Sequence record: OR896157.1
Reading direction: 5' to 3' (one strand)
DNA length: 64,000 nt
From: a phage
In this document: one piece after another, positions 4,610-63,876 of the stretch
Position numbering within the stretch: position 1 is the first letter of the stretch
Layout of the letters: each line of letters begins with the position of its first letter
The notes under the pieces: generated by a model
What the model saw: the letters and a program-made list of their open reading frames with translations, nothing else
What the model was told of the DNA's origin: nothing
Databases searched by the model: none
Position numbers and translations under genes: made by a program

Positions 4610-6178
4610 ATGAAATTTGACGTCTTAAGTTTGTTCGCGCCGTGGGCCAAAGTCGACGAACAGGAATACGACCAGCAGCTAAATAATAATTTAGAGTCTA
4701 TCACGGCCCCTAAATTTGATGACGGCGCGACAGAGATTGAATCGGAACGTGGAGACATTGCAGGCGCTGGATTATTCCAGAGAATGTACGGTCAAAATGA
4801 ACCGGGAATGAAAAACACCAGGGAGCTTATCGATACTTACCGTCAGTTAATGAATAACTACGAAGTAGATAACGCTGTCCAAGAAATCGTCTTAGATGCA
4901 ATTGTATACGAAGATGATCATCCAGTTGTTTCATTGGATTTAGATAACACTGATTTTAGCCAGGCGATTAAAGACCGTTTACAAGAAGAATTTAACGAAG
5001 TTCTTACTTGTCTGAATTTTGAAAGAAAGGGTCTTGACCATTTCCGTCGCTGGTATGTCGATTCTCGTATCTTCTTCCATAAAATTATTAACCCTAAAAA
5101 ACCGAAAGAAGGTATTCAAGAGCTTCGTCGTTTAGACCCTCGCAATATTCAGTTCGTTCGTGAAGTTATCACTGACACTGAAGCGGGCGTGAAAATTGTT
5201 AAAGGCTACAAAGAATATTTCGTTTATAACACCGGTCACGAGTCTTATCAATGTGACGGTCGAATTTACGACGCTGGAACGAAAATTAAAATTCCAAAGG
5301 CTGCAGTTGTTTATGCACACTCTGGATTAGTTGATTGTTCAGGAAGAAACATCATCGGTTATTTGCACCGAGCTGTTAAACCTGCTAACCAGCTTAAACT
5401 GCTTGAAGACGCAATGGTGATTTATCGTATTACACGTGCGCCAGACCGTCGAGTATTTTACATTGACACAGGGAACATGCCTTCCCGTAAAGCTGCTGCT
5501 CATATGCAACACATCATGAACACCATGAAAAACCGTGTGGTATATGATGCGTCTACTGGTAAAATTAAAAACCAGCAGCACAATATGTCAATGACAGAAG
5601 ATTATTGGTTACAGCGCCGCGATGGTAAAGCTGTTACTGAAATTGATAATATGCCTGGTGCTTCAGGCATGAACGAAATGGACGATGTCCGTTGGTTCAA
5701 GAACAACCTTTACCAAGCATTACGTGTTCCACTGTCTCGTATCCCGAATGACCAACAAAGTGGAGTTCAGTTTGATGCTGGAACTGGAATTACACGTGAC
5801 GAGTTACAATTTGCTAAATTCATTCGTGAACTGCAGCATAAGTTTGAAGAAATTTTCCTCGACCCTCTTAAAACAAACCTTATTTTGAAAGGCGTAATGA
5901 GCGAAGATGATTGGAAAGATGAAATAAATAACATTAAGATAGTATTTCATCGTGACAGTTACTTCACTGAACTTAAAGATGCTGAAGTCACTGAACGCAG
6001 ATTCAATATGCTTCAAATGGCCGAACCGTTTATCGGTAAGTATATTTCTCATCAGACTGCAATGAAGACTATTCTTCAAATGACTGATGAACAAATTGAC
6101 CAAGAGGCTAAGCAAATTGAGCTAGAGTCTAAAGAGGCTCGTTTCCAAGACCCAGACCAAGAACAAGAGGATTTCTAA
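4610..6178 (+). CDS. 20: portal vertex protein gp20
   Basis: 522 aa from first ATG (track start 4598 is TTG); GGAG Shine-Dalgarno 6 nt upstream; T4 gp20 is 524 aa; synteny 19-20-67. Confidence 0.95.
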
Positions 6179-54137: not shown

Positions 54138-54145
54138 TATAAATA
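54138..54145 (+). promoter_or_regulatory. T4-type late promoter TATAAATA for gene 34
   Basis: Exact TATAAATA about 30 nt upstream of gene 34 ATG. Confidence 0.6.
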
Positions 54146-54175: not shown

Positions 54176-57100
54176 ATGGCAGATTCAATCAAACGCAAGT
54201 TTCGTGGCGCTGACGGCTTCGATGCTGCGGGTGAAAAAATAGTCAACGTTGCTACTGCTGACCGCACGGTGTTATCCGATGGCGTCAACGTTGAATTCCT
54301 TATCCAAGAAAACACATTACAACAGTATGATTCTACTCGTGGCTACACTTCCGGTTTCGCAGTAATTTACGACAACCGCATTTGGGTTTCAAATCGTGAT
54401 ATTGCAAAACCTGCTGGCAATTTTAATGAGCTTTATTGGACTTCGGTTCGTACCGACGCAAAATGGCGTGTAGTTTCAAGCGGAACAACAATTTTAAAAT
54501 CAGGTGAATTTATTTCTGTCGATACTGCAAAAGGTAATGACATGATTTTCACTTTACCAAATAATCCGCAAGATGGTGATACAATTATGCTGAAGGATAT
54601 CGGTAATAAAACCGGTACCGTTGGTGTAACTATCAACGCATCTATTCAAGACATTGTGTTGCGTGGCCCTACGAATAAAGTTCGCTCAGTCAAAATGACT
54701 CATCCACTGTCTCAATATGTGTTTGTGTTCAGCAATAGATTGTGGAATCTTTACGTTTCTGATTACGAACGAGTTGCTCGTATTGTAACACCAAGCGCAG
54801 TTGTTCAAGCTCAATCTAACGACTTTATAGTTCGCAGATATACTTCTCCAGACCCAATCCGTGTTACTTTGCCTAAACATGCAAACACTGGAGATATCAT
54901 CAACTTTACTGACCTTGATGGAAAGAACCCTCAATTCCATATGATTGTTAGTACATTCGATGATAACACCAATATCGGTACTGTTGGTCAAAAATCTATA
55001 GAGGTTCGTACTTCTGGTGACGGATTCATTGTATATGATGAATCAGAGTCAATCTGGAGAATCTGGGAAGGCGACTTACGTCCGCGCATGCGTGTGATCA
55101 CCGACAACGTAACTTTAATTCCAAACGAGGTTGTTACTGTTTTTGGTGTAAATAACAGCACTCAGAAAACTATTGATATAACTTTACCTACTGATATTGC
55201 TATTGGCGATACTGTCACTATTGCAATGAATTATATGCGCAAAGGACAGAAAGTAAATATCAGAGCAGCTACTGGAGATAAAATTGCTTCAAGTCTTCAA
55301 TTACTGCAATTCCCTAAACGCTCAGAGTATCCGCCTGATACCACTTGGGTAATGAATGATGTTCTTACTTTTGATGGTACTACTTCTTATGTTCCAGTAT
55401 TGCAATTATCTTATATTGAACATGCTGGAAGTAAATACTGGATTGTTGCTGATAATGATCCGACCGTAGAGCGTGTTGACTCTAAAGATAACGAAACTCG
55501 TAAACGCTTAGGTGTTATTGCATTAGCAAGTCAAGACCAAGCAAACGTTGACCACGAAAATAATCCAGAAAAAGAGTTAGCAATTACTCCTCAAACTCTG
55601 GCAAACCGTGTTGCTACTAAAGTTCGTCGCGGTATTGCTCGTTTAGTTACTTTAACTGAAATCCAAGCTCTAACTCCTGGACCGCATTTGGATGATGTTA
55701 TTGTCACTCCTGCGATGCTGAATGAAAAAACAGCAACAGAAACTCGTCGTGGTGTTGCTGAAACTGCTACTCAAGCTGAAGCAAATGGTTCAACAGACGA
55801 TGAACGTATCATCACTCCGAAGAAGCTGCATAACCGTATTGCTTCTGAGATTTTGACTGGTATTCTTAAATTAGTCAGAACGACTGGAACTCTTGCGGGT
55901 ATTGGGCGTGATACAAAAGGTACTAACGTTTATGACTATGATAACAACATTGATGCGGTAACTCCAAAATCATTGTTCCAATTCAAGTCTACTGAGCAAG
56001 CTCAGGGCGGTGTTTATCTTGCAACTCAAAACGAAGTAATTGCTGGTGGTCCAGCTCAACCTGGTTTCCCAGTGGTGGTTACTCCTGAAACTCTTCATGG
56101 TAAAACAACTACTGATGGAAGAATTGGTCTTATTCAGATTGCTAAACAAACTGAAGTAGATGCTGGTACTAATTACAATAAAGCTGTTACTCCTAAAACT
56201 CTTAATGACCGTAAGGCTCGTGAAGATTTAAGTGGTATTGCTGAAATTGCAACTCAAGTTGAATTTGATACCGGAACGGACGATACGCGTATCGTAACTC
56301 CATTAAAGGTTAAAACTCGTTTCAATTCAACCGACAGAACATCTGTTGTTGCTCTGTCTGGATTAGTTGAGCAAGGAACCTTGTGGGACCATTATACATT
56401 AGATATCAAAGAAGCATCTGAGACTCAGCGTGGTACTGCTGCTCTGGCCACTCAGGTACAAGTTGATGCTGGTACTGATGATAAGACGATTGTTACGCCT
56501 AAGAAATTGCATGCTAAGAAAGCTACTGAAACTACCGAAGGTATTATTCAAGTTGCTAACCAAGCTGAAACGGTAGCCGGTACTATTGCTAATAAAGCAG
56601 TTTCTCCTAAGAACTTTAAGTATGTTGTCCAAGAAGAAAAAACTTGGGAATCTACTATAGCTCAGCGTGGTTTCGTTAAATTATCAGAAAAAGCACTCAC
56701 CTTTAAGGGTGATACTTTAAATGGTTCTGGTCGTCTGCTTCTAGGTGATTTAATTAACGAACCCGCTTTAACAGATTTGCCTAAAGAAGGTTATGCAGTA
56801 TCTCCATACGAGATGAACCGTGCTCTGCAATACTTCTTGCCGGCTAAAGCAAAAGCTGTTGATTCGGATTTACTGGATGGAATTGATTCAACTCAGTTTG
56901 TTCGCCGCGATATCGACCAAGTAGTTAATGGCAAAATTACATTCAAAAAGGATGTTACTCTAGAAGCTCCTCTGGTGTCCTCTAGTACGGCCAAATTCAC
57001 TACCGTGAATGCTACTATATCTGTTGATATTGGTGACACCCTGGGTAATTCTAGAATCAATTTGAATACTCTGGCGAATGGCTGGAACATTGAAACTCTG

Positions 57101-57970
57101 GCGAATGGTTCAACTCTTGATTTTACTGCTACAGATAAAGTTCTGACGCTTAATCGTAATGGAAACGTAACGGTTGCTCAGACTCTGACGGCAATGAACA
57201 AAGTTGATGCTAGTAAGGGCTTTTCAGTCGAAGGTGGTACAATGGTTATCAATCCTTCCTCTACTGAAATTGTCATTGGTACTCAATCTAAGCAAGTAAC
57301 ATTGCAGAACAAAGATGCTAAGACATTCTCAGTTGTAGACCCTTCTGGCACTTACACCATTCTGAATACCAAGAATGCTTTTGAAATAACGGCTCAGGGG
57401 TTCGTTAAGAAAGCAGGTGATTCAATGACTGGGCCACTTCAAATTCAAGCTCCATTGACTGTTCAGATTCCTGAAGGACGAGTTGCTCCTGATGTTAAAC
57501 CATCAGATGATAACCCAGCTTCATGGTCTGCATCAATTACCTCAGCAGCAATTTACAACAAATTGCCTGGCTATGGTGTTCCAGTTATGGAAAAAGATGC
57601 TGAAGGACAAGACACCGGTTTCGTAGACCATTACGAATATGTTAAAGGTCCTGGTGTATTAACTCAACATGGTATTGGTAAGACTGCGGTCTATCAAATT
57701 TGGGCGCCTCGCCCAACTGTGCAAGAGTTAAACCATAATGCTCAGACTTTCTGGATTCGTAACTTCAACATCGTCACTGGCGAGTGGGACGAATTTGGTA
57801 AGATGTACACCTCAGTTCAGAGACCTACTGCAGGGGAAATTGGTGCTGTATCAACTTCTGGTTCAGCTTTCAATAACTTGACAATTCGCGATTGGTTACA
57901 GATTAAGAACGTTCGTATTGTTCCTAATGAAACTACTCGCACTGTTGACTTCATATGGGTTGATGAATAA
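54176..57970 (+). CDS. 34: long tail fibre proximal subunit gp34
   Basis: 1264 aa (T4 gp34 1289 aa); conserved N- and C-terminal regions as recalled; divergent from rnh as in T4. Confidence 0.95.
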   Translation: MADSIKRKFRGADGFDAAGEKIVNVATADRTVLSDGVNVEFLIQENTLQQYDSTRGYTSGFAVIYDNRIWVSNRDIAKPAGNFNELYWTSVRTDAKWRVVSSGTTILKSGEFISVDTAKGNDMIFTLPNNPQDGDTIMLKDIGNKTGTVGVTINASIQDIVLRGPTNKVRSVKMTHPLSQYVFVFSNRLWNLYVSDYERVARIVTPSAVVQAQSNDFIVRRYTSPDPIRVTLPKHANTGDIINFTDLDGKNPQFHMIVSTFDDNTNIGTVGQKSIEVRTSGDGFIVYDESESIWRIWEGDLRPRMRVITDNVTLIPNEVVTVFGVNNSTQKTIDITLPTDIAIGDTVTIAMNYMRKGQKVNIRAATGDKIASSLQLLQFPKRSEYPPDTTWVMNDVLTFDGTTSYVPVLQLSYIEHAGSKYWIVADNDPTVERVDSKDNETRKRLGVIALASQDQANVDHENNPEKELAITPQTLANRVATKVRRGIARLVTLTEIQALTPGPHLDDVIVTPAMLNEKTATETRRGVAETATQAEANGSTDDERIITPKKLHNRIASEILTGILKLVRTTGTLAGIGRDTKGTNVYDYDNNIDAVTPKSLFQFKSTEQAQGGVYLATQNEVIAGGPAQPGFPVVVTPETLHGKTTTDGRIGLIQIAKQTEVDAGTNYNKAVTPKTLNDRKAREDLSGIAEIATQVEFDTGTDDTRIVTPLKVKTRFNSTDRTSVVALSGLVEQGTLWDHYTLDIKEASETQRGTAALATQVQVDAGTDDKTIVTPKKLHAKKATETTEGIIQVANQAETVAGTIANKAVSPKNFKYVVQEEKTWESTIAQRGFVKLSEKALTFKGDTLNGSGRLLLGDLINEPALTDLPKEGYAVSPYEMNRALQYFLPAKAKAVDSDLLDGIDSTQFVRRDIDQVVNGKITFKKDVTLEAPLVSSSTAKFTTVNATISVDIGDTLGNSRINLNTLANGWNIETLANGSTLDFTATDKVLTLNRNGNVTVAQTLTAMNKVDASKGFSVEGGTMVINPSSTEIVIGTQSKQVTLQNKDAKTFSVVDPSGTYTILNTKNAFEITAQGFVKKAGDSMTGPLQIQAPLTVQIPEGRVAPDVKPSDDNPASWSASITSAAIYNKLPGYGVPVMEKDAEGQDTGFVDHYEYVKGPGVLTQHGIGKTAVYQIWAPRPTVQELNHNAQTFWIRNFNIVTGEWDEFGKMYTSVQRPTAGEIGAVSTSGSAFNNLTIRDWLQIKNVRIVPNETTRTVDFIWVDE

Positions 57971-59118
57971 TGGCTAAAATGATGGCGAGCTTTGGACAAG
58001 GATTTGTCCAAACTCAAGTTCTCTCTGAGAACAATTCCGTCAAGTATAAGCTAGCATTCGCTGCAGGGGTAGCTCAGTCTACCCCTTCTGAAGCTTATTA
58101 TACTTTCCAGGATGAACCTGCTGGTGTTCAATATGACGGTCCCGGCATAAATTTGAGAGAGTTTAATCCAACTAACAACCAAATGATTAACTTCAAGACT
58201 TTTAATATAAAGCCTGAAGATACAAATGCTGGAACAAAAGCGTTTGTCGATCATATGAAAACGTTAGTATCTTCTGACAATTTGCTTATAATTACTTCAT
58301 ATGATAGATTATATTCAAGCCCGTCTGTTGAAGCATTAATGAAATCAATTGGCTCAGTTTTATGGCCAAGCGTATTCTTAACGACCAATTATAGTTGCAA
58401 TTATTGTGCATTGTATTCTATAAATCGTAAAAAGATAATTGCTGAAAATGCTACTTACTCTGATTTCAAAAAAGAAGACAGAGACATTAGGCCAGCACTT
58501 GAATTCATTTATGATAAGCCAAGCGACATAGGAGCTACTGGGTATTCTCAAAAAGCAATTGATGACCCTGAAACTTATATCATCGATAAAGATAATACAA
58601 GTAAAAGATTTCCACAGCAATTTGAACGAATATCTCCAATAAGTGAATATGGAATTTCTCCTGGAGATAAAATGCAATGGAACTTTGAAGTTAAAGGTGA
58701 TGCTTCTTTAAATGCTCCTGGGCAAAATATTAGAGTTAACTTAAGATGGTTTAAAGGAAGCTCTTATTTATCTGGAGCTGTAGTCGAAACAAATCCTTTA
58801 GATGCAGACAAATGGGCTTGGCATCAAAGATATGTCACTGTACCAGACACTGCTGATGGATTTACTATCATAGCTTCTCGTTATCCAGAAGTAGCTGGTT
58901 CTGAAGGAAGCGGAGCCATTAGAGAAATGATGCTTACTCAAGTGTCAAGATTGGTTGAACCTCTTATGGACCCAGCCGGATTCGGTGTCAATGGTATTCG
59001 TATGAATAATATGATTTCTGATGGAGTAAATGAAAATACTCTATTAGTCCTTCCTGATACTGAAGATGATAAGTCTGGTAATATCTACTCATCTGACTTC
59101 AGAGAGTATAATGACTAA
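57970..59118 (+). CDS. 35: long tail fibre hinge protein gp35
   Basis: 382 aa (T4 gp35 372 aa); order 34-35-36-37. Confidence 0.88.
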   Translation: MAKMMASFGQGFVQTQVLSENNSVKYKLAFAAGVAQSTPSEAYYTFQDEPAGVQYDGPGINLREFNPTNNQMINFKTFNIKPEDTNAGTKAFVDHMKTLVSSDNLLIITSYDRLYSSPSVEALMKSIGSVLWPSVFLTTNYSCNYCALYSINRKKIIAENATYSDFKKEDRDIRPALEFIYDKPSDIGATGYSQKAIDDPETYIIDKDNTSKRFPQQFERISPISEYGISPGDKMQWNFEVKGDASLNAPGQNIRVNLRWFKGSSYLSGAVVETNPLDADKWAWHQRYVTVPDTADGFTIIASRYPEVAGSEGSGAIREMMLTQVSRLVEPLMDPAGFGVNGIRMNNMISDGVNENTLLVLPDTEDDKSGNIYSSDFREYND

Positions 59119-59144
59119 AGCCCTTCGGGGCTTTTGTTGTTTCT
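59119..59144 (+). terminator. intrinsic terminator with C(UUCG)G loop after gene 35
   Basis: AGCCC-TTCG-GGGCT followed by TTTGTTGTTTCT. Confidence 0.65.
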
Positions 59145-59177: not shown

Positions 59178-59831
59178 ATGGCTGATTTAAAAGCTAACAG
59201 TACAATTGGCGGATTACCGATTTGGCACCAGGGGAATTTCCCTCTTTTTCCAATAAACGATACTCTGCTTTACAAGACTTATAAAGTCTATACCGAATAC
59301 GACAAGCCTCAAGCTGTAGATAACGACTTTGTTTCTAAAGCTAATGGCGGAACATATCTGCAGTCAGTTAACTTTAATCAAGGAATGACTTTCCTTGATA
59401 GCGCTGGTGGCGAAGTTACAATAGGAAAAGCAACTGGAACATTAGGAGCAACCTATACTGCTTCAATTAAAGTACCTGCTCAATTTGCGTTTGAAACTGG
59501 TGAAGGCAAGCCGTTTGTAATTTTTGACCCAGTTACTGATATGACTAAGCCTCGTCTTATTGTGATGGGAGATGTCTTAGGTAAGTTTTTATATGATGAA
59601 TCTGGACGAGTTTATTCACCTGGAAATAAACCTACAAATGCTGACGTTGGTTTAGGTAATGTTACCAATGACACTCAGGTGAAAATAAATACAACCGAAT
59701 TACAAACAATGACAGGTTCATTAGCTGCCCCGAACTTAAGTTCTTTGAATGCAGCTTCTGCGCCACAACACGTTCCTCGTTTTGATCAGATTGTCGTAAG
59801 AGATTCTATTCAAGATTTTGGAACTTATTGA
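59178..59831 (+). CDS. 36: long tail fibre distal connector gp36
   Basis: 217 aa (T4 gp36 221 aa). Confidence 0.88.
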   Translation: MADLKANSTIGGLPIWHQGNFPLFPINDTLLYKTYKVYTEYDKPQAVDNDFVSKANGGTYLQSVNFNQGMTFLDSAGGEVTIGKATGTLGATYTASIKVPAQFAFETGEGKPFVIFDPVTDMTKPRLIVMGDVLGKFLYDESGRVYSPGNKPTNADVGLGNVTNDTQVKINTTELQTMTGSLAAPNLSSLNAASAPQHVPRFDQIVVRDSIQDFGTY

Positions 59832-62379
59832 GGAATTTATGGCAACTATCAAACAAATTCAATTTAAGCGTTCTAATGTTGCTGGTAAAAGACCGCTTCC
59901 TGCTGATATCGCAGAAGGCGAATTAGCAATTAACATCAAAGATTCCACGTTATTTACAAAGAACGCTGATGGACAAATTATTGACCTCGGTTTTGCTAAA
60001 GGCGGTAAAATCGATGGTGACGTTACTCAAGTAGGTAATTACACTCAAACCGGTAATTTTAGTACTACTGGTGATGTCAGTGCTAAAACTATTTTAGCCT
60101 CAGCAGGTGTTTCAGCAAATGGTGATATTGTTGCTGAAAGAGGTGTAATTAAAACTCGTGCTGCCGCTTCAGGCAACGCTCATTTATGGTTTGAAGGCGA
60201 AGAAATAACTGGCGAAAACCGTAATAAAGAACGAGGTGTTTTATATGCTACCCAACAAACAGATACAGATGGGCGAGTAAACCTTCGAGTTTACAATGGT
60301 AAAGCCCACGCGGCTAATACAAACAACGCACTGTTTGTGTTTAACGGTGCCGGGGATTTCGCCGCTCCTAAAGATTTGTATGGTCAACGCTCTCGTCTGA
60401 GCATCGAATCCGTTGCTCCTACTATGAATACGAACCGTCTTTTTACGGCATATAAACCTTTTGGTGCACAGCAATATAGTTGGGACGACTCAGTAACTTA
60501 CACAAAGGCATCAGGTGCTTTAAACTACGTGTATAAAGGTCGTGCAAATATAGAAGGAACTATTTGGCATAACATTATTGATGAAAGAACTGGCGCTGAA
60601 AACGTTTGGTATACAGGTTCTGGTCCCGAAAATAAACTGTATTCTTTAGCAAGTCGTGGTGCCAAAGGACACGGTTTTTATACCGGTTCTTTAATGATCG
60701 GTGCTAATAATCTTGGAGAATACTCTGGAATGGGAGATTCTTCTATTGCCCTTGGTGATAACGATACTGGGTTTAAATGGACCGGTGATGGTGCTTTTAG
60801 TATTATGTCAAATGCCCAGAAAATAGTTGACATATATAACTCTGCCACAAAACCGTTTTATATTAAAAAATGTACTAAAATAGCACATAGTGATAATAAC
60901 TCAGATAATTTGTTCCCATCAAATAATAATGCTTTATTAGAAATTGACACTTCATTAGACGGAAATAATGCTGGTGGTAATGGCGTAACTCTTATTGGGT
61001 ACAACTCTGGAAGTAGGTATTATCATTATTTCCGAGGCCGTGGAAGTGCAAATTTTGACATGGATAGTGGTGTCTATATTAGTAAAGGTGGATTGTCAGT
61101 TGGTGGCAACATATCATCTACTGGTCAAGTTCAGCCTTCTAACTATAGTAACTTCGATTCACGTTATCAGAATTTGTTACAACTCGGCGCCAACGTGAAC
61201 TTAGATACTCTAATTAATGATAGCCACCTTGGTGAGTGGGCTCAACACTCTAATTCTAATACGTCTTTAGCTTTGAACTATCCTGAAGCACAAGCAGGTC
61301 ATTTAACAGTTACTTCTGGTGCGGGTGTTCAACAGCGATATCACGTTTATAACAGTACTCGTGTATACTTACGTGCGAAATATAGTTCTGAAGCATGGAA
61401 ACCGTGGGACCGGGTTGTAACAGAAGATTATTTGAAAACTGGAATTCCTTCTCAATTCGTATCTAAAAACTCTGATGGTTTCCGTATTGCATATGGTAGC
61501 TACGGGTTCTTTATCCGTAATGATGGTGGCAATACTTATTTCATGCTGACCAACTCTGGCGACCAAATGGGGACTTGGAACGGCCTTCGTCCGTTAACAA
61601 TAAGTAACACAACCGGCCAAGTTACTATAGGTACTCCATTAGTTGTGACTCATGCTTCAGGTCTTACAGTAAATAGTACAGCAGGTGATGCTATTTCTTG
61701 GGGTAGCTTAGGTGCATGTTTAGCAAACGATGGTAACTTAAAAGGTTCGCGTTGGAAATCCTTTGGCGGGTCAGAATGGGTTGGTGATGCTTTAAGCTGG
61801 GTTCACGGTCAAAACGTTTCTAAGTCTGGCGATACTATGACCGGCGCATTAAGAGTTACTAACTGGATTAGTGCCGATAACGTTAGGACTTATAATGATA
61901 TAGAATTAAGTAAAAACGCTCGTCGACATATAAGATTTCAGGATTCTAGGGGTGCAGATGCCTTTATTTACAAAGATGCTGGTGCTAATCCTTTAAGAAT
62001 CAACTTAGGTGTTGATGGTGGAGATTGGCAATTCCAAGTAGGCGGTACTTTTTATGCTAGCGGTAATGGTGATTTTAACGATGTTAGAATTCGTTCTGAT
62101 ATAAGATTGAAAACTAATTTAGTTAAAATAGAAAGTGCTACTGATAAAGTAGAAAAGCTAAATGGCTACGTCTATGATAAAAAACAATCTTTAAATGATT
62201 CAGAGTACAACTCTCATGAAGCTGGATTGATTGCGCAAGAATTAGAAAAAGTACTTCCTGAAGCAGTTTCAGAACTTTCTGATGGAACTAAAACTATCTC
62301 TAGTTCCGCAACCATAGCACTTTTAGTAGAAAGTATCAAAGAGCTTAATTCTAGAATTAAAGAACTTGAATCTAAATAA
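59818..62379 (+). CDS. 37: long tail fibre distal subunit gp37 with C-terminal intramolecular-chaperone-like domain
   Basis: 853 aa; C-terminal ...SDIRLKTNL...GLIAQELEKVLPEAV... resembles the autoproteolytic chaperone domain of fibre and endosialidase proteins. Confidence 0.88.
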   Translation: MELIEEFMATIKQIQFKRSNVAGKRPLPADIAEGELAINIKDSTLFTKNADGQIIDLGFAKGGKIDGDVTQVGNYTQTGNFSTTGDVSAKTILASAGVSANGDIVAERGVIKTRAAASGNAHLWFEGEEITGENRNKERGVLYATQQTDTDGRVNLRVYNGKAHAANTNNALFVFNGAGDFAAPKDLYGQRSRLSIESVAPTMNTNRLFTAYKPFGAQQYSWDDSVTYTKASGALNYVYKGRANIEGTIWHNIIDERTGAENVWYTGSGPENKLYSLASRGAKGHGFYTGSLMIGANNLGEYSGMGDSSIALGDNDTGFKWTGDGAFSIMSNAQKIVDIYNSATKPFYIKKCTKIAHSDNNSDNLFPSNNNALLEIDTSLDGNNAGGNGVTLIGYNSGSRYYHYFRGRGSANFDMDSGVYISKGGLSVGGNISSTGQVQPSNYSNFDSRYQNLLQLGANVNLDTLINDSHLGEWAQHSNSNTSLALNYPEAQAGHLTVTSGAGVQQRYHVYNSTRVYLRAKYSSEAWKPWDRVVTEDYLKTGIPSQFVSKNSDGFRIAYGSYGFFIRNDGGNTYFMLTNSGDQMGTWNGLRPLTISNTTGQVTIGTPLVVTHASGLTVNSTAGDAISWGSLGACLANDGNLKGSRWKSFGGSEWVGDALSWVHGQNVSKSGDTMTGALRVTNWISADNVRTYNDIELSKNARRHIRFQDSRGADAFIYKDAGANPLRINLGVDGGDWQFQVGGTFYASGNGDFNDVRIRSDIRLKTNLVKIESATDKVEKLNGYVYDKKQSLNDSEYNSHEAGLIAQELEKVLPEAVSELSDGTKTISSSATIALLVESIKELNSRIKELESK

Positions 62380-62385
62380 ATTAAG

Positions 62386-62403
62386 AGGGGCTTTACGCCC
62401 CTG
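62386..62403 (+). terminator. weak hairpin after gene 37
   Basis: AGGGGC-TTTAC-GCCCCT; no strong U-run. Confidence 0.3.
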
Positions 62404-62413
62404 AGGATTTAAT

Positions 62414-63190
62414 ATGGCAGTAACAGGCCCTATGGTTGGCAGTTCAGCTAAAAACGAGACAGGCAAAGAATGGATGTCCCAAGCAGGAACTGTCTTAAGA
62501 ATGAGTGTTCCATTTATGATGTCTTCTATGATTGGACGCTCTAAAGAAATAACTATAACTTTAGGCGCTAACCACAACTATGACCGAAACGACCTGATTA
62601 ATAAACTTCGTGCATTGGGTTCAACTCCTGCTGTAGTCGTTATTTCAGGTGATTTGGTTGCTCAAAATACTGGTGTTCCTTGTTTAGAATTTCCATCTAA
62701 CTTACCAAATGAATATGTTCATTTACGAGTTAATGCTAACGTATATGGTAGGGGTGGTGCAGGTTGTAGTAATGGGCAAACATCAGGTCAACCTGGTGGT
62801 CCCGCAATTTTAAACAGTTTCGGAACACGTCTTCGTATTGAAAATAACGCTGCTATTTGTGGTGGTGGCGGTGGCGGCGGCGGTGTAAAATTAACAAGTG
62901 TAGTTTCTGGTGGTTCAGGTGGTAGGCCATTCGGGGCTGCTGGTATAGCATCCGGTCGAGATTCACATGATGGTATAGCGGCAACCTTAACCGCACCGGG
63001 TCCAACTCCTCCGCAAACTCGTTATAAGACTACTGGTGGTGCTGGAGGTGATGTTGGACGTCCAGGTGCATCTGGTACTAATGGTGGTGGTAAGGTTACT
63101 AACCTTCCAGGTGGTGCAGCCGGAGCAGCAGTATATGGAAATGCTCCAACTTGGATTAAAGTTGGTAGCGTCTATGGCTCAAGAGTTTAA
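62414..63190 (+). CDS. 38: gp38 receptor-recognising adhesin (T2/T6 type, glycine-rich motifs)
   Basis: 258 aa; N-terminus MAV.G...GSSA.NETG..WMSQA and poly-Gly run GGGGGGGG match T2-type gp38 as recalled; unlike T4 gp38. Confidence 0.85.
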   Translation: MAVTGPMVGSSAKNETGKEWMSQAGTVLRMSVPFMMSSMIGRSKEITITLGANHNYDRNDLINKLRALGSTPAVVVISGDLVAQNTGVPCLEFPSNLPNEYVHLRVNANVYGRGGAGCSNGQTSGQPGGPAILNSFGTRLRIENNAAICGGGGGGGGVKLTSVVSGGSGGRPFGAAGIASGRDSHDGIAATLTAPGPTPPQTRYKTTGGAGGDVGRPGASGTNGGGKVTNLPGGAAGAAVYGNAPTWIKVGSVYGSRV

Positions 63191-63219: not shown

Positions 63220-63876
63220 ATGACCCAGAGAACACCACTACCAGGAATATCTGACATTTTATTTGGTGTTCTAGACAGACTCTTCAAAGATAACGCAACC
63301 GGGAGGGTACTTGCTTCCCGGGTTGTTGCGCTTGTAGTTGTTTTCATTCTTTCACTTACATGGTATCGTTTAGATTCTATTATGCAAGTGTGGAAAGAGT
63401 CTCGTTACGAGACGTACACTAAAGTCCTGCAACAAGATAAAGAGGCTAAATTTGAAGCATCAGCTCTAGAACAACTACAGATAGCTCACGTTTCGAGCAA
63501 TGCAGATTTTTCCGCAATTTACTCATTTAGACCACGCAACTTAAATTACTTTGTGGATTTAATTGCATATGAAGGGCGCCTGCCTAGCGCAGTCAATGAA
63601 AAAAATTTGGGAGGATTTCCAGTTGATAAGACTTCAAACGAATATTCTGCTCATTTGAGAGGTGCATATTTCTCTTCTGAGAATGAATTTGTTTTCTTGC
63701 CAACTAAGAAAAAGGATGGGGAGTTGAAGTACATGTACTCGTGCCCGTATTTCAACCTGGACAACGTTTATGCCGGAACAGTTTCCATGTACTGGTATAG
63801 CAAACCACTCTTAAATGAAAATAGATTGGCTGCAATTTGTAGTCAAGCTGCTAGAACTTTAGGAAGAGCCAAGTAA
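63220..63876 (+). CDS. t: holin T
   Basis: 218 aa, same length as T4 holin; ...SDILFGVLDRLFKDNATG.VLASRV... and C-terminus ...AARTLGRAK match T4 as recalled. Confidence 0.95.
   Translation: MTQRTPLPGISDILFGVLDRLFKDNATGRVLASRVVALVVVFILSLTWYRLDSIMQVWKESRYETYTKVLQQDKEAKFEASALEQLQIAHVSSNADFSAIYSFRPRNLNYFVDLIAYEGRLPSAVNEKNLGGFPVDKTSNEYSAHLRGAYFSSENEFVFLPTKKKDGELKYMYSCPYFNLDNVYAGTVSMYWYSKPLLNENRLAAICSQAARTLGRAK

Follow-up and report, generated by a model that had tools for sequence, protein, structure and literature searches.

Classical gp38 adhesins bind OmpA, OmpC, OmpF, Tsx or FadL. In Salmonella phage S16, the complex of such an adhesin with the distal tail fibre subunit gp37 is described by PDB entry 6F45 (Dunne et al. 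2018, as the citing papers PMC12892980 and PMC7917993 give it), and the last 113 residues of gp37 are autocleaved between two serines (DLNVS^SDRRIKK), which bares the docking surface for gp38 (PMC7917993). T2-like fPS phages have DVYIR^SDGRLKI at the gp37 cleavage point (PMC7917993), and gp37 of T2 and T6 is proteolytically trimmed and then capped by gp38 (PMC3157838). The catalytic dyad of the chaperone family, a serine and a lysine five residues on, is S911/K916 in endoNF and S587/K592 in MyRF (PMC8326128). Here we describe the corresponding locus in phage record OR896157.1, of which a 64,000-nt stretch (hereafter the window) was analysed. The last 10 kb of the window hold a T-even long-tail-fibre operon on the plus strand in the order g34-g35-g36-g37-g38-t (Table 1). 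We conclude with high confidence that this is the distal end of the long-tail-fibre operon of a Karamvirus-type T4-like Enterobacter phage, carrying a T2/S16-type host-recognition module, and that it is a natural chimera. The arrangement of a gp37 with a Peptidase_S74 (S74) chaperone followed by a gp38 adhesin is already well known; what the window adds is a new mosaic combination. Gene order, both protein families, the conservation of the cleavage motif and the glycine motifs, and the mosaic ancestry are all seen directly in the DNA and its translations.

The gene g38 lies between g37, which stops at 62379, and t, an order that is identical in T2, T6, M1, fPS-90, CIP9 and PG7. Its product matches the whole Pfam GP38 adhesin profile (PF05268; profile positions 1-218 of 218, E 9e-75, 251.6 bits against a cut-off of 25), matches Gp38_N at residues 1-40 (PF21721; E 4e-20, 72.1 bits, cut-off 25) and belongs to PHROG 2056 (E 2e-93). 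The crystal structure of the S16 adhesin (6F45_D) matches gp38 residues 1-256 at 49% identity (E 7e-53), and the PP01 gp38 structure (9V85) matches with an E value of 8e-36. Glycine makes up 20% of the protein and 28% of residues 110-258. An alignment of ten adhesins (that of the window, those of T2, T6, M1, fPS-90 and S16, and four from Enterobacter phages) contained 63 invariant columns, including every glycine motif, GGRPFG and a C-terminal P.W..VG..YG, and the segments between these motifs vary. The invariant residues include G112-R113-G114-G115, G128-G129, G151-G156, G166-G167 and G169-G170-R171-P172 in the first part of the region and G209, G211-G212, G233-G234, G237, P245, W247, G251 and G255 in the second. 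This agrees with a preliminary description of the locus, which had reported a 258-aa gp38 whose N terminus is conserved and which has glycine-rich motifs. Because gp37 and gp38 both score far above curated family cut-offs, chance is not an issue, and we found nothing that contradicts the family assignment of either protein.

At its extreme C terminus, gp37 matches Peptidase_S74 (PF13884, ‘Chaperone of endosialidase’) at residues 753-810, covering profile positions 1-57 of 58 (E 7e-15, 55.5 bits against a gathering cut-off of 22). The domain starts with an SD.R.K motif, SDIRLK (residues 753-758, nucleotides 62095-62112), which supplies a Ser753-Lys758 dyad with the lysine five residues after the serine. 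When the last 100 residues of gp37 were aligned to solved structures, FNDVRIR-SDIRLK stood opposite DLNVS-SDRRIKK of S16 gp37 (6F45_A), and weaker matches were found to 8JOV, the tail fibre of another phage, and to 7DC3, the ICA domain of MyRF. The window sequence that matches the fPS cleavage point is DVRIR-SDIRLKT. The cleavage site is kept in eight gp37 tails, among which the Ser and the Asp are invariant, and an S74 domain was found in all seven of the other gp37 proteins tested that precede a Gp38_N gene (T2, T6, fPS-90, CIP9, PG7, EnC15 and AS6). The sequence pattern also points to a C-terminal heptad helix at about 62299-62376: the last ~24 residues, ...ATIALLVESIKELNSRIKELESK, have a 3-4 spacing of I, L and V, which is the spacing expected of a trimerising coiled coil. 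The profile match and the S16 alignment thus bear out the earlier suggestion that gp37 ends in an SD.R.K motif and a helical tail resembling an auto-processing chaperone. The start of the gene had been placed differently. The 853-aa reading frame at 59818-62379 that had been taken for gp37 does exist, but it opens at a TTG inside the end of gp36. An ATG at 59839 has a GAGGA Shine-Dalgarno sequence 5' of it, and the N terminus read from this codon, MATIKQIQFKRS, equals those of PG7 gp37 and T4 gp37; the true start is therefore 59839, and gp37 has 846 residues.

These features suggest a pathway like that of the described systems. The 846-aa gp37 would be made with a 94-residue C-terminal Peptidase_S74 chaperone, whose terminal helices would come together as a trimer and nucleate the folding of the fibre trimer. 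After folding, the Ser753-Lys758 dyad would cut between R752 and S753, releasing the 94-residue fragment and leaving a mature gp37 predicted to end ...GDFNDVRIR. Release would bare the fibre tip, on which one gp38 would dock through its N-terminal attachment domain (residues 1 to ~44). The remainder of gp38, with a putative beta-helix and a putative polyglycine-II sandwich built of the glycine-rich motifs, would present the variable receptor-binding loops. With the join placed in the short conserved linker that follows the attachment domain, each gp38 N-terminal domain would stay with the gp37 tip that it fits. Cleavage as such, a 3:1 stoichiometry and binding through the loops are what the S16, T2 and endosialidase literature would lead one to expect here.

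Compared with S16, the window has the same C-terminal S74 chaperone on gp37, with a predicted cleavage point ahead of the SDxRxK motif, and the same plan in gp38, in which a linker joins the attachment domain to a putative beta-helix and a putative polyglycine sandwich (the fold being assigned here by sequence) with an ICGGGGGGGG run. It differs from S16 in that gp37 is unrelated upstream of the final ~7 residues ahead of the cut, the chaperone has 94 residues rather than 113, methionine replaces W7 and W36 of S16 gp38, the variable loops differ, and the S16 receptor is Salmonella OmpC. With T2, T6 and M1, the window gp38 shares five glycine-rich motifs in the same order, the conserved N terminus and the C-terminal P.W..VG..YG, as in the Henning/Krisch model, and gp37 has an S74 domain as in T2 and T6. 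However, identity to the T2, T6 and M1 adhesins is 44-54%, the hypervariable segments are unrelated, and the loop after the glycine run has 8 residues in the window and 11-16 in these three phages. The chaperone resembles the ICA (Peptidase S74) domains of endoNF and MyRF in Pfam family, Ser-Lys spacing of five, GxIAQE core motif and C-terminal coiled-coil helix. Unlike the endoNF domain, it is on a T-even tail fibre and not a tailspike, and its direct similarity to MyRF is marginal (E 0.16).

Two groups of Enterobacter phage relatives match different parts of the locus. The 20 kb upstream of the module share 96-98% identity with PG7, AS6, EcL8g and other Karamvirus phages, whereas the module as a whole is best matched by Entb_45 (86% over 99% of the query) and CIP9 (90% over 84%), both Kanagawavirus phages. 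Of these, vB_EclM_CIP9 has 94% protein identity in gp38 and 97% in the C-terminal 130 residues of gp37; it has the same attachment domain and the same hairpin between g37 and g38, but its gp36 and holin are only 56-72% identical, and its gp38 body differs by 80 nucleotides and 12 amino acids. PG7, whose backbone is 97% identical, has the same gp38 residues 45-258 except for K227N and V228I (18 nucleotide and two amino acid differences over the body), but differs in type in the C-terminal half of its gp37 (23% identity over the last 130 residues) and in its attachment domain of gp38. We mapped these changes of affinity by a 100-nt sliding identity comparison, which yielded the segments listed in Table 1. 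Within the segment from ~60380 to 62545, EnC15 is closest at 61278-61478, and PG7 is 30-58% identical from 60878 on. In gp38, the sequence before 62545 has 13 nucleotide differences from CIP9 and 57 from PG7, and downstream this pattern is reversed. The two patterns meet at the 8-nt sequence GAAATAAC, which lies directly after the attachment domain, that is, on the domain boundary and away from the glycine tract.

The same edge is found in related phages. Megablast homology to the window also starts at 62518-62545 in a dozen other Karamvirus gp38 genes, so that mosaics in this group repeatedly have an edge at this domain boundary. Three types of attachment domain co-vary with three types of gp37 tail, one shared by the window, CIP9 and Entb_45, one by PG7 and Pet-CM3-4, and one by EnC15, T2 and T6. 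This co-variation fits the need for the gp38 N terminus to match the gp37 tip, which has been shown experimentally with T2/PP01 chimeras (PMC12892980). The sequence comparisons suggest that the gp37 shaft, tip and chaperone were inherited together with the gp38 attachment domain as one Kanagawavirus-related block (CIP9, Entb_45), and that the gp38 body is PG7-like. It is possible, though by no means probable, that the locus arose by a natural cross-genus ‘adapter swap’ in which a PG7-type body was grafted onto a Kanagawavirus-type attachment domain, gp37 tip and chaperone, with the crossover in codons 45-47. Nucleotide homology searches found no phage record with the window's combination of module parts, and the exact gp37 and gp38 sequences were both absent from a collection of 15 billion proteins.

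What the adhesin binds is best approached through Cronobacter phage Pet-CM3-4 (Karamvirus), the nearest experimentally studied relative, whose gp264 is an 82% identical gp38 of the same clade. Pet-CM3-4 binds the lipopolysaccharide (LPS) core, and the substitution K163Q, in the loop after the run of eight glycines (G8), switches it to the O:3 antigen (PMC10194368). Single substitutions at position 163 or 229 of gp264 change host range, and at position 229 it was a lysine-gain mutant that adsorbed best (PMC10194368). K227 of the window aligns with N229 of Pet-CM3-4, and the K227/V228 pair that sets the body apart from that of PG7 may be a recent host-range adaptation. Unlike the window gp38, gp264 has an attachment domain of PG7 type, a loop after G8 that is one residue longer and N229 in place of K227. 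By analogy with Pet-CM3-4, LPS (core or O antigen) appears at least as likely a receptor as a porin. We consider it rather doubtful that the window adhesin recognises an outer-membrane protein of the OmpA, OmpC, OmpF or Tsx type and not LPS, as the adhesins of T2, T6, K3, Ox2 and S16 do. Most characterised members of the gp38 family do bind porins or other outer-membrane proteins (PMC12032242; PMC12892980), but the closely related Pet-CM3-4 uses the LPS core or, as the K163Q variant, the O:3 antigen, and the window gp38 is just 44-54% identical to porin-binding adhesins, with unrelated variable loops.

The eight-glycine run invites another reading of how such modules change. It is encoded by GGT and GGC codons, as the preliminary description had it, although its position is some 6-7 nt upstream of the 62868-62890 given there. 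The same description proposed that the GGY tract is a slippage or recombination hotspot; such a hotspot could drive length variation of the adhesin and swapping of the module. Glycine-rich motifs have been put forward as recombination hotspots (PMC12032242), and as general promoters of recombination they are still a hypothesis of that literature. A run of at least four glycines was present at this position in 32 of 34 gp38 sequences surveyed (an alignment-based scan gave 25 loci and a single-protein query four close loci), and run length varies from 5 to 10 across the wider family, which would suit a hotspot; in distant relatives, however, much of this ‘length’ change is substitution of edge glycines by Ala, Ser or Cys inside a span of 9-10 residues. 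Tandem Repeats Finder detects in the tract only a short imperfect 6-nt or 9-nt repeat (score 33-40), and the longest perfect trinucleotide repeat is three units. Over 437 nt (62648-63084) the window is identical to PG7 except at 62872 and 62875, both inside the tract, where adjacent GGT-GGC codons are synonymously swapped to GGC-GGT; this is one hint of local instability. Against a hotspot, the run is exactly eight glycines long in each of the 11 other Karamvirus/Kanagawavirus clade members sampled, almost every one of which has a different GGT/GGC/GGA pattern. This constancy despite codon changes argues for purifying selection on run length, and deletions in glycine-rich motifs were not viable in T6 (PMC3157838). 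The junction mapped in the window gp38 is ~300 nt upstream of the tract, at codons 45-47. The hotspot explanation is thus unlikely.

Least tenable, and in our view extremely improbable, is a T4-type module in which gp38 would be an assembly chaperone outside the virion and the gp37 C terminus would itself bind the receptor: g38 does occupy the position of T4 g38 between g37 and t, but BLASTP of the window gp38 against T4 gp38 found no similarity (best E 14), the full length of gp38 is covered by matches to the adhesin family and to the crystal structures from S16 and PP01, and gp37 has S74 in place of the Collar (PF07484) and Phage_fiber (PF03335) domains that T4 gp37 carries without S74. We therefore reject this arrangement and retain the T2/T6-type one, as first proposed for the locus.

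Some observations nevertheless weigh against our reading of a chimeric T2/S16-type tip or limit its detail. M7 and M35 of gp38 replace two of the three tryptophan docking ‘prongs’ of S16, W20 being retained, so details of docking may differ. We infer a polyglycine-II sandwich for gp38 solely from the full-length 49% identity to 6F45_D, and a single-sequence AlphaFold2 model of the protein was unusable (pLDDT 33.7). Pet-CM3-4, on which the receptor analogy draws, differs in the relevant loops, for example VKL-TSVV versus VKVGKNVV after the G8 run. From five genomes, neither the direction of the recombination events nor their sequence in time can be deduced.

As an arrangement, the locus carries little biological weight, being the dominant and well-characterised tip of T-even-like phages. 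Its value is practical, for Enterobacter phage therapy and tail-fibre engineering, for which it offers boundaries at the predicted R752/S753 cleavage site, the attachment domain (residues 1-44) and the receptor-binding body (residues 45-258); from the mosaic one can read which portion of gp38 has to be moved together with which gp37 tip. LPS is indicated as a receptor candidate besides porins, where adsorption assays on outer-membrane-protein mutants alone had been suggested before. Of modest interest are the crossover at a domain boundary and, at a known specificity site, the two residues that differ from PG7. Should exchange prove to favour this boundary in general, the boundary would be nature's equivalent of the engineered N-terminal gp38 swaps needed for gp37 compatibility and would outweigh the glycine motifs usually invoked as exchange points.

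Table 1. Features of the long-tail-fibre locus in OR896157.1 (positions in the window; aa, amino acids; nt, nucleotides; gp37 numbered from the ATG at 59839).
Feature	Position	Strand	Remarks
gp34	54176-57970	+	1264 aa
gp35	57970-59118	+	382 aa
gp36, distal hinge connector	59178-59831	+	217 aa; PHROG 1425, E 4e-58; stop codon 59829-59831
gp37, long tail fibre distal subunit	59839-62379	+	846 aa; PHROG 1699, E 6e-210
Gp34_trimer-type module in gp37 shaft, aa 538-614	61450-61680	+	Pfam PF21446, E 1.5e-22
Predicted self-cleavage site R752/S753 of gp37	62092-62097	+	Alignment to S16 gp37 cleavage site
Intramolecular chaperone domain Peptidase_S74 of gp37, aa 753-846 (94 aa)	62095-62376	+	Pfam PF13884
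GC-rich hairpin	62386-62402 (outer stem 62377-62411)	+	AGGGGC-TTTAC-GCCCCT; dG -15.3 kcal/mol, z -2.7
gp38, T2-type long-tail-fibre tip adhesin	62414-63190	+	258 aa
gp38 N-terminal gp37-attachment domain, aa 1-44	62414-62545	+	CIP9/Entb_45-type; Gp38_N aa 1-40
gp38 receptor-binding body (putative beta-helix and polyglycine), aa 45-258	62546-63187	+	PG7-type; PF05268 aa 45-258
Eight-glycine run, gp38 aa 150-157	62861-62884	+	GGT GGT GGC GGT GGC GGC GGC GGT
K227-V228 of gp38	63092-63097	+	Only residues of aa 45-258 differing from PG7 (N-I)
Holin t	63220-63876	+	218 aa; Pfam Phage_holin_T, E 1e-77
Mosaic: gp36 and first ~50 gp37 codons	up to ~59980	+	Backbone-like; PG7/EnC15 93-100%, CIP9 56-72%
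Mosaic: gp37 shaft part	60078-60378	+	Closest EnC15 and Entb_45
Mosaic: rest of gp37 to gp38 attachment domain	~60380-62545	+	Mostly CIP9/Entb_45, about 70-100% per 100-nt window
Mosaic junction, gp38 codons 45-47	62546-62553	+	8 nt identical in the analysed DNA, CIP9 and PG7
Mosaic: gp38 body	62554-63190	+	PG7 18 differences in 646 nt, CIP9 80; ~97% identical to PG7
Mosaic: holin, backbone again	63220 onward	+	91-100% nt identity to PG7/EnC15

The GC-rich hairpin is situated between the stop codon of g37 and the Shine-Dalgarno sequence of g38. An equivalent hairpin was found at the same position in ten other T-even relatives, with other stem sequences (GGGCC/GGCCC, AGGGC/GCCCT and GGGGG/CCCCC) and commonly a UUCG loop. 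The structure is therefore kept by covariation. As no T-run follows the hairpin on the plus strand, it probably serves mRNA stability or processing and not termination. A second hairpin, terminator-like with a TTCG loop and a T-rich run, is at 59117-59134, directly 3' of gp35 and between g35 and g36. A perfect T4-type late-promoter box, TATAAATA, is at 54138, just 5' of g34; a search for this box found none within the module, so that 54138 is the nearest. In a general scan for promoters and terminators, counts were no higher than shuffled expectation. Residues 59-131 of gp35 have a sub-threshold Pfam match to ILEI (interleukin-like EMT inducer; E 1e-4, 23 bits, cut-off 27).

The module in the gp37 shaft also matches Mu tail fibre S (5YVQ, E 1e-25) and T4 gp34 (4UXE/5NXF), and Gp34_trimer illustrates how proximal and distal fibre subunits share modules with each other and with Mu. 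Some records of relatives deserve comment. In phage vB_EclM_AS6 (our locus L005, 4522-7921), whose backbone is ~97% identical, the 949-aa gp37 likewise has a C-terminal S74 chaperone, and the 172-aa gp38 after it has only the N-terminal attachment domain in common with that of the window; its C-terminal part of ~130 residues has no Pfam match. We considered and rejected a T4-type assignment for this protein, as Gp38_N is present and BLASTP against T4 gp38 gave an E value of 0.077. It looks like a third kind of tip protein, which alternates with the T2 type within one genus. In the PG7 record (KJ101592.1, locus L003, ~5085-5160), reading the DNA against the Pet-CM3-4 protein suggests that gp38 has one extra base near codon 21. 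As a result, the annotated coding sequence (‘hypothetical protein’) starts at a false downstream codon; the extra base probably reflects either a sequencing error or a real frameshift in the record. In the Entb_45 record (ON630910.1, locus L001, 2502-5066), gp37 is annotated in two pieces, as a pseudogene (‘missing C-terminus’) and as a separate ‘tail fiber domain-containing protein’.

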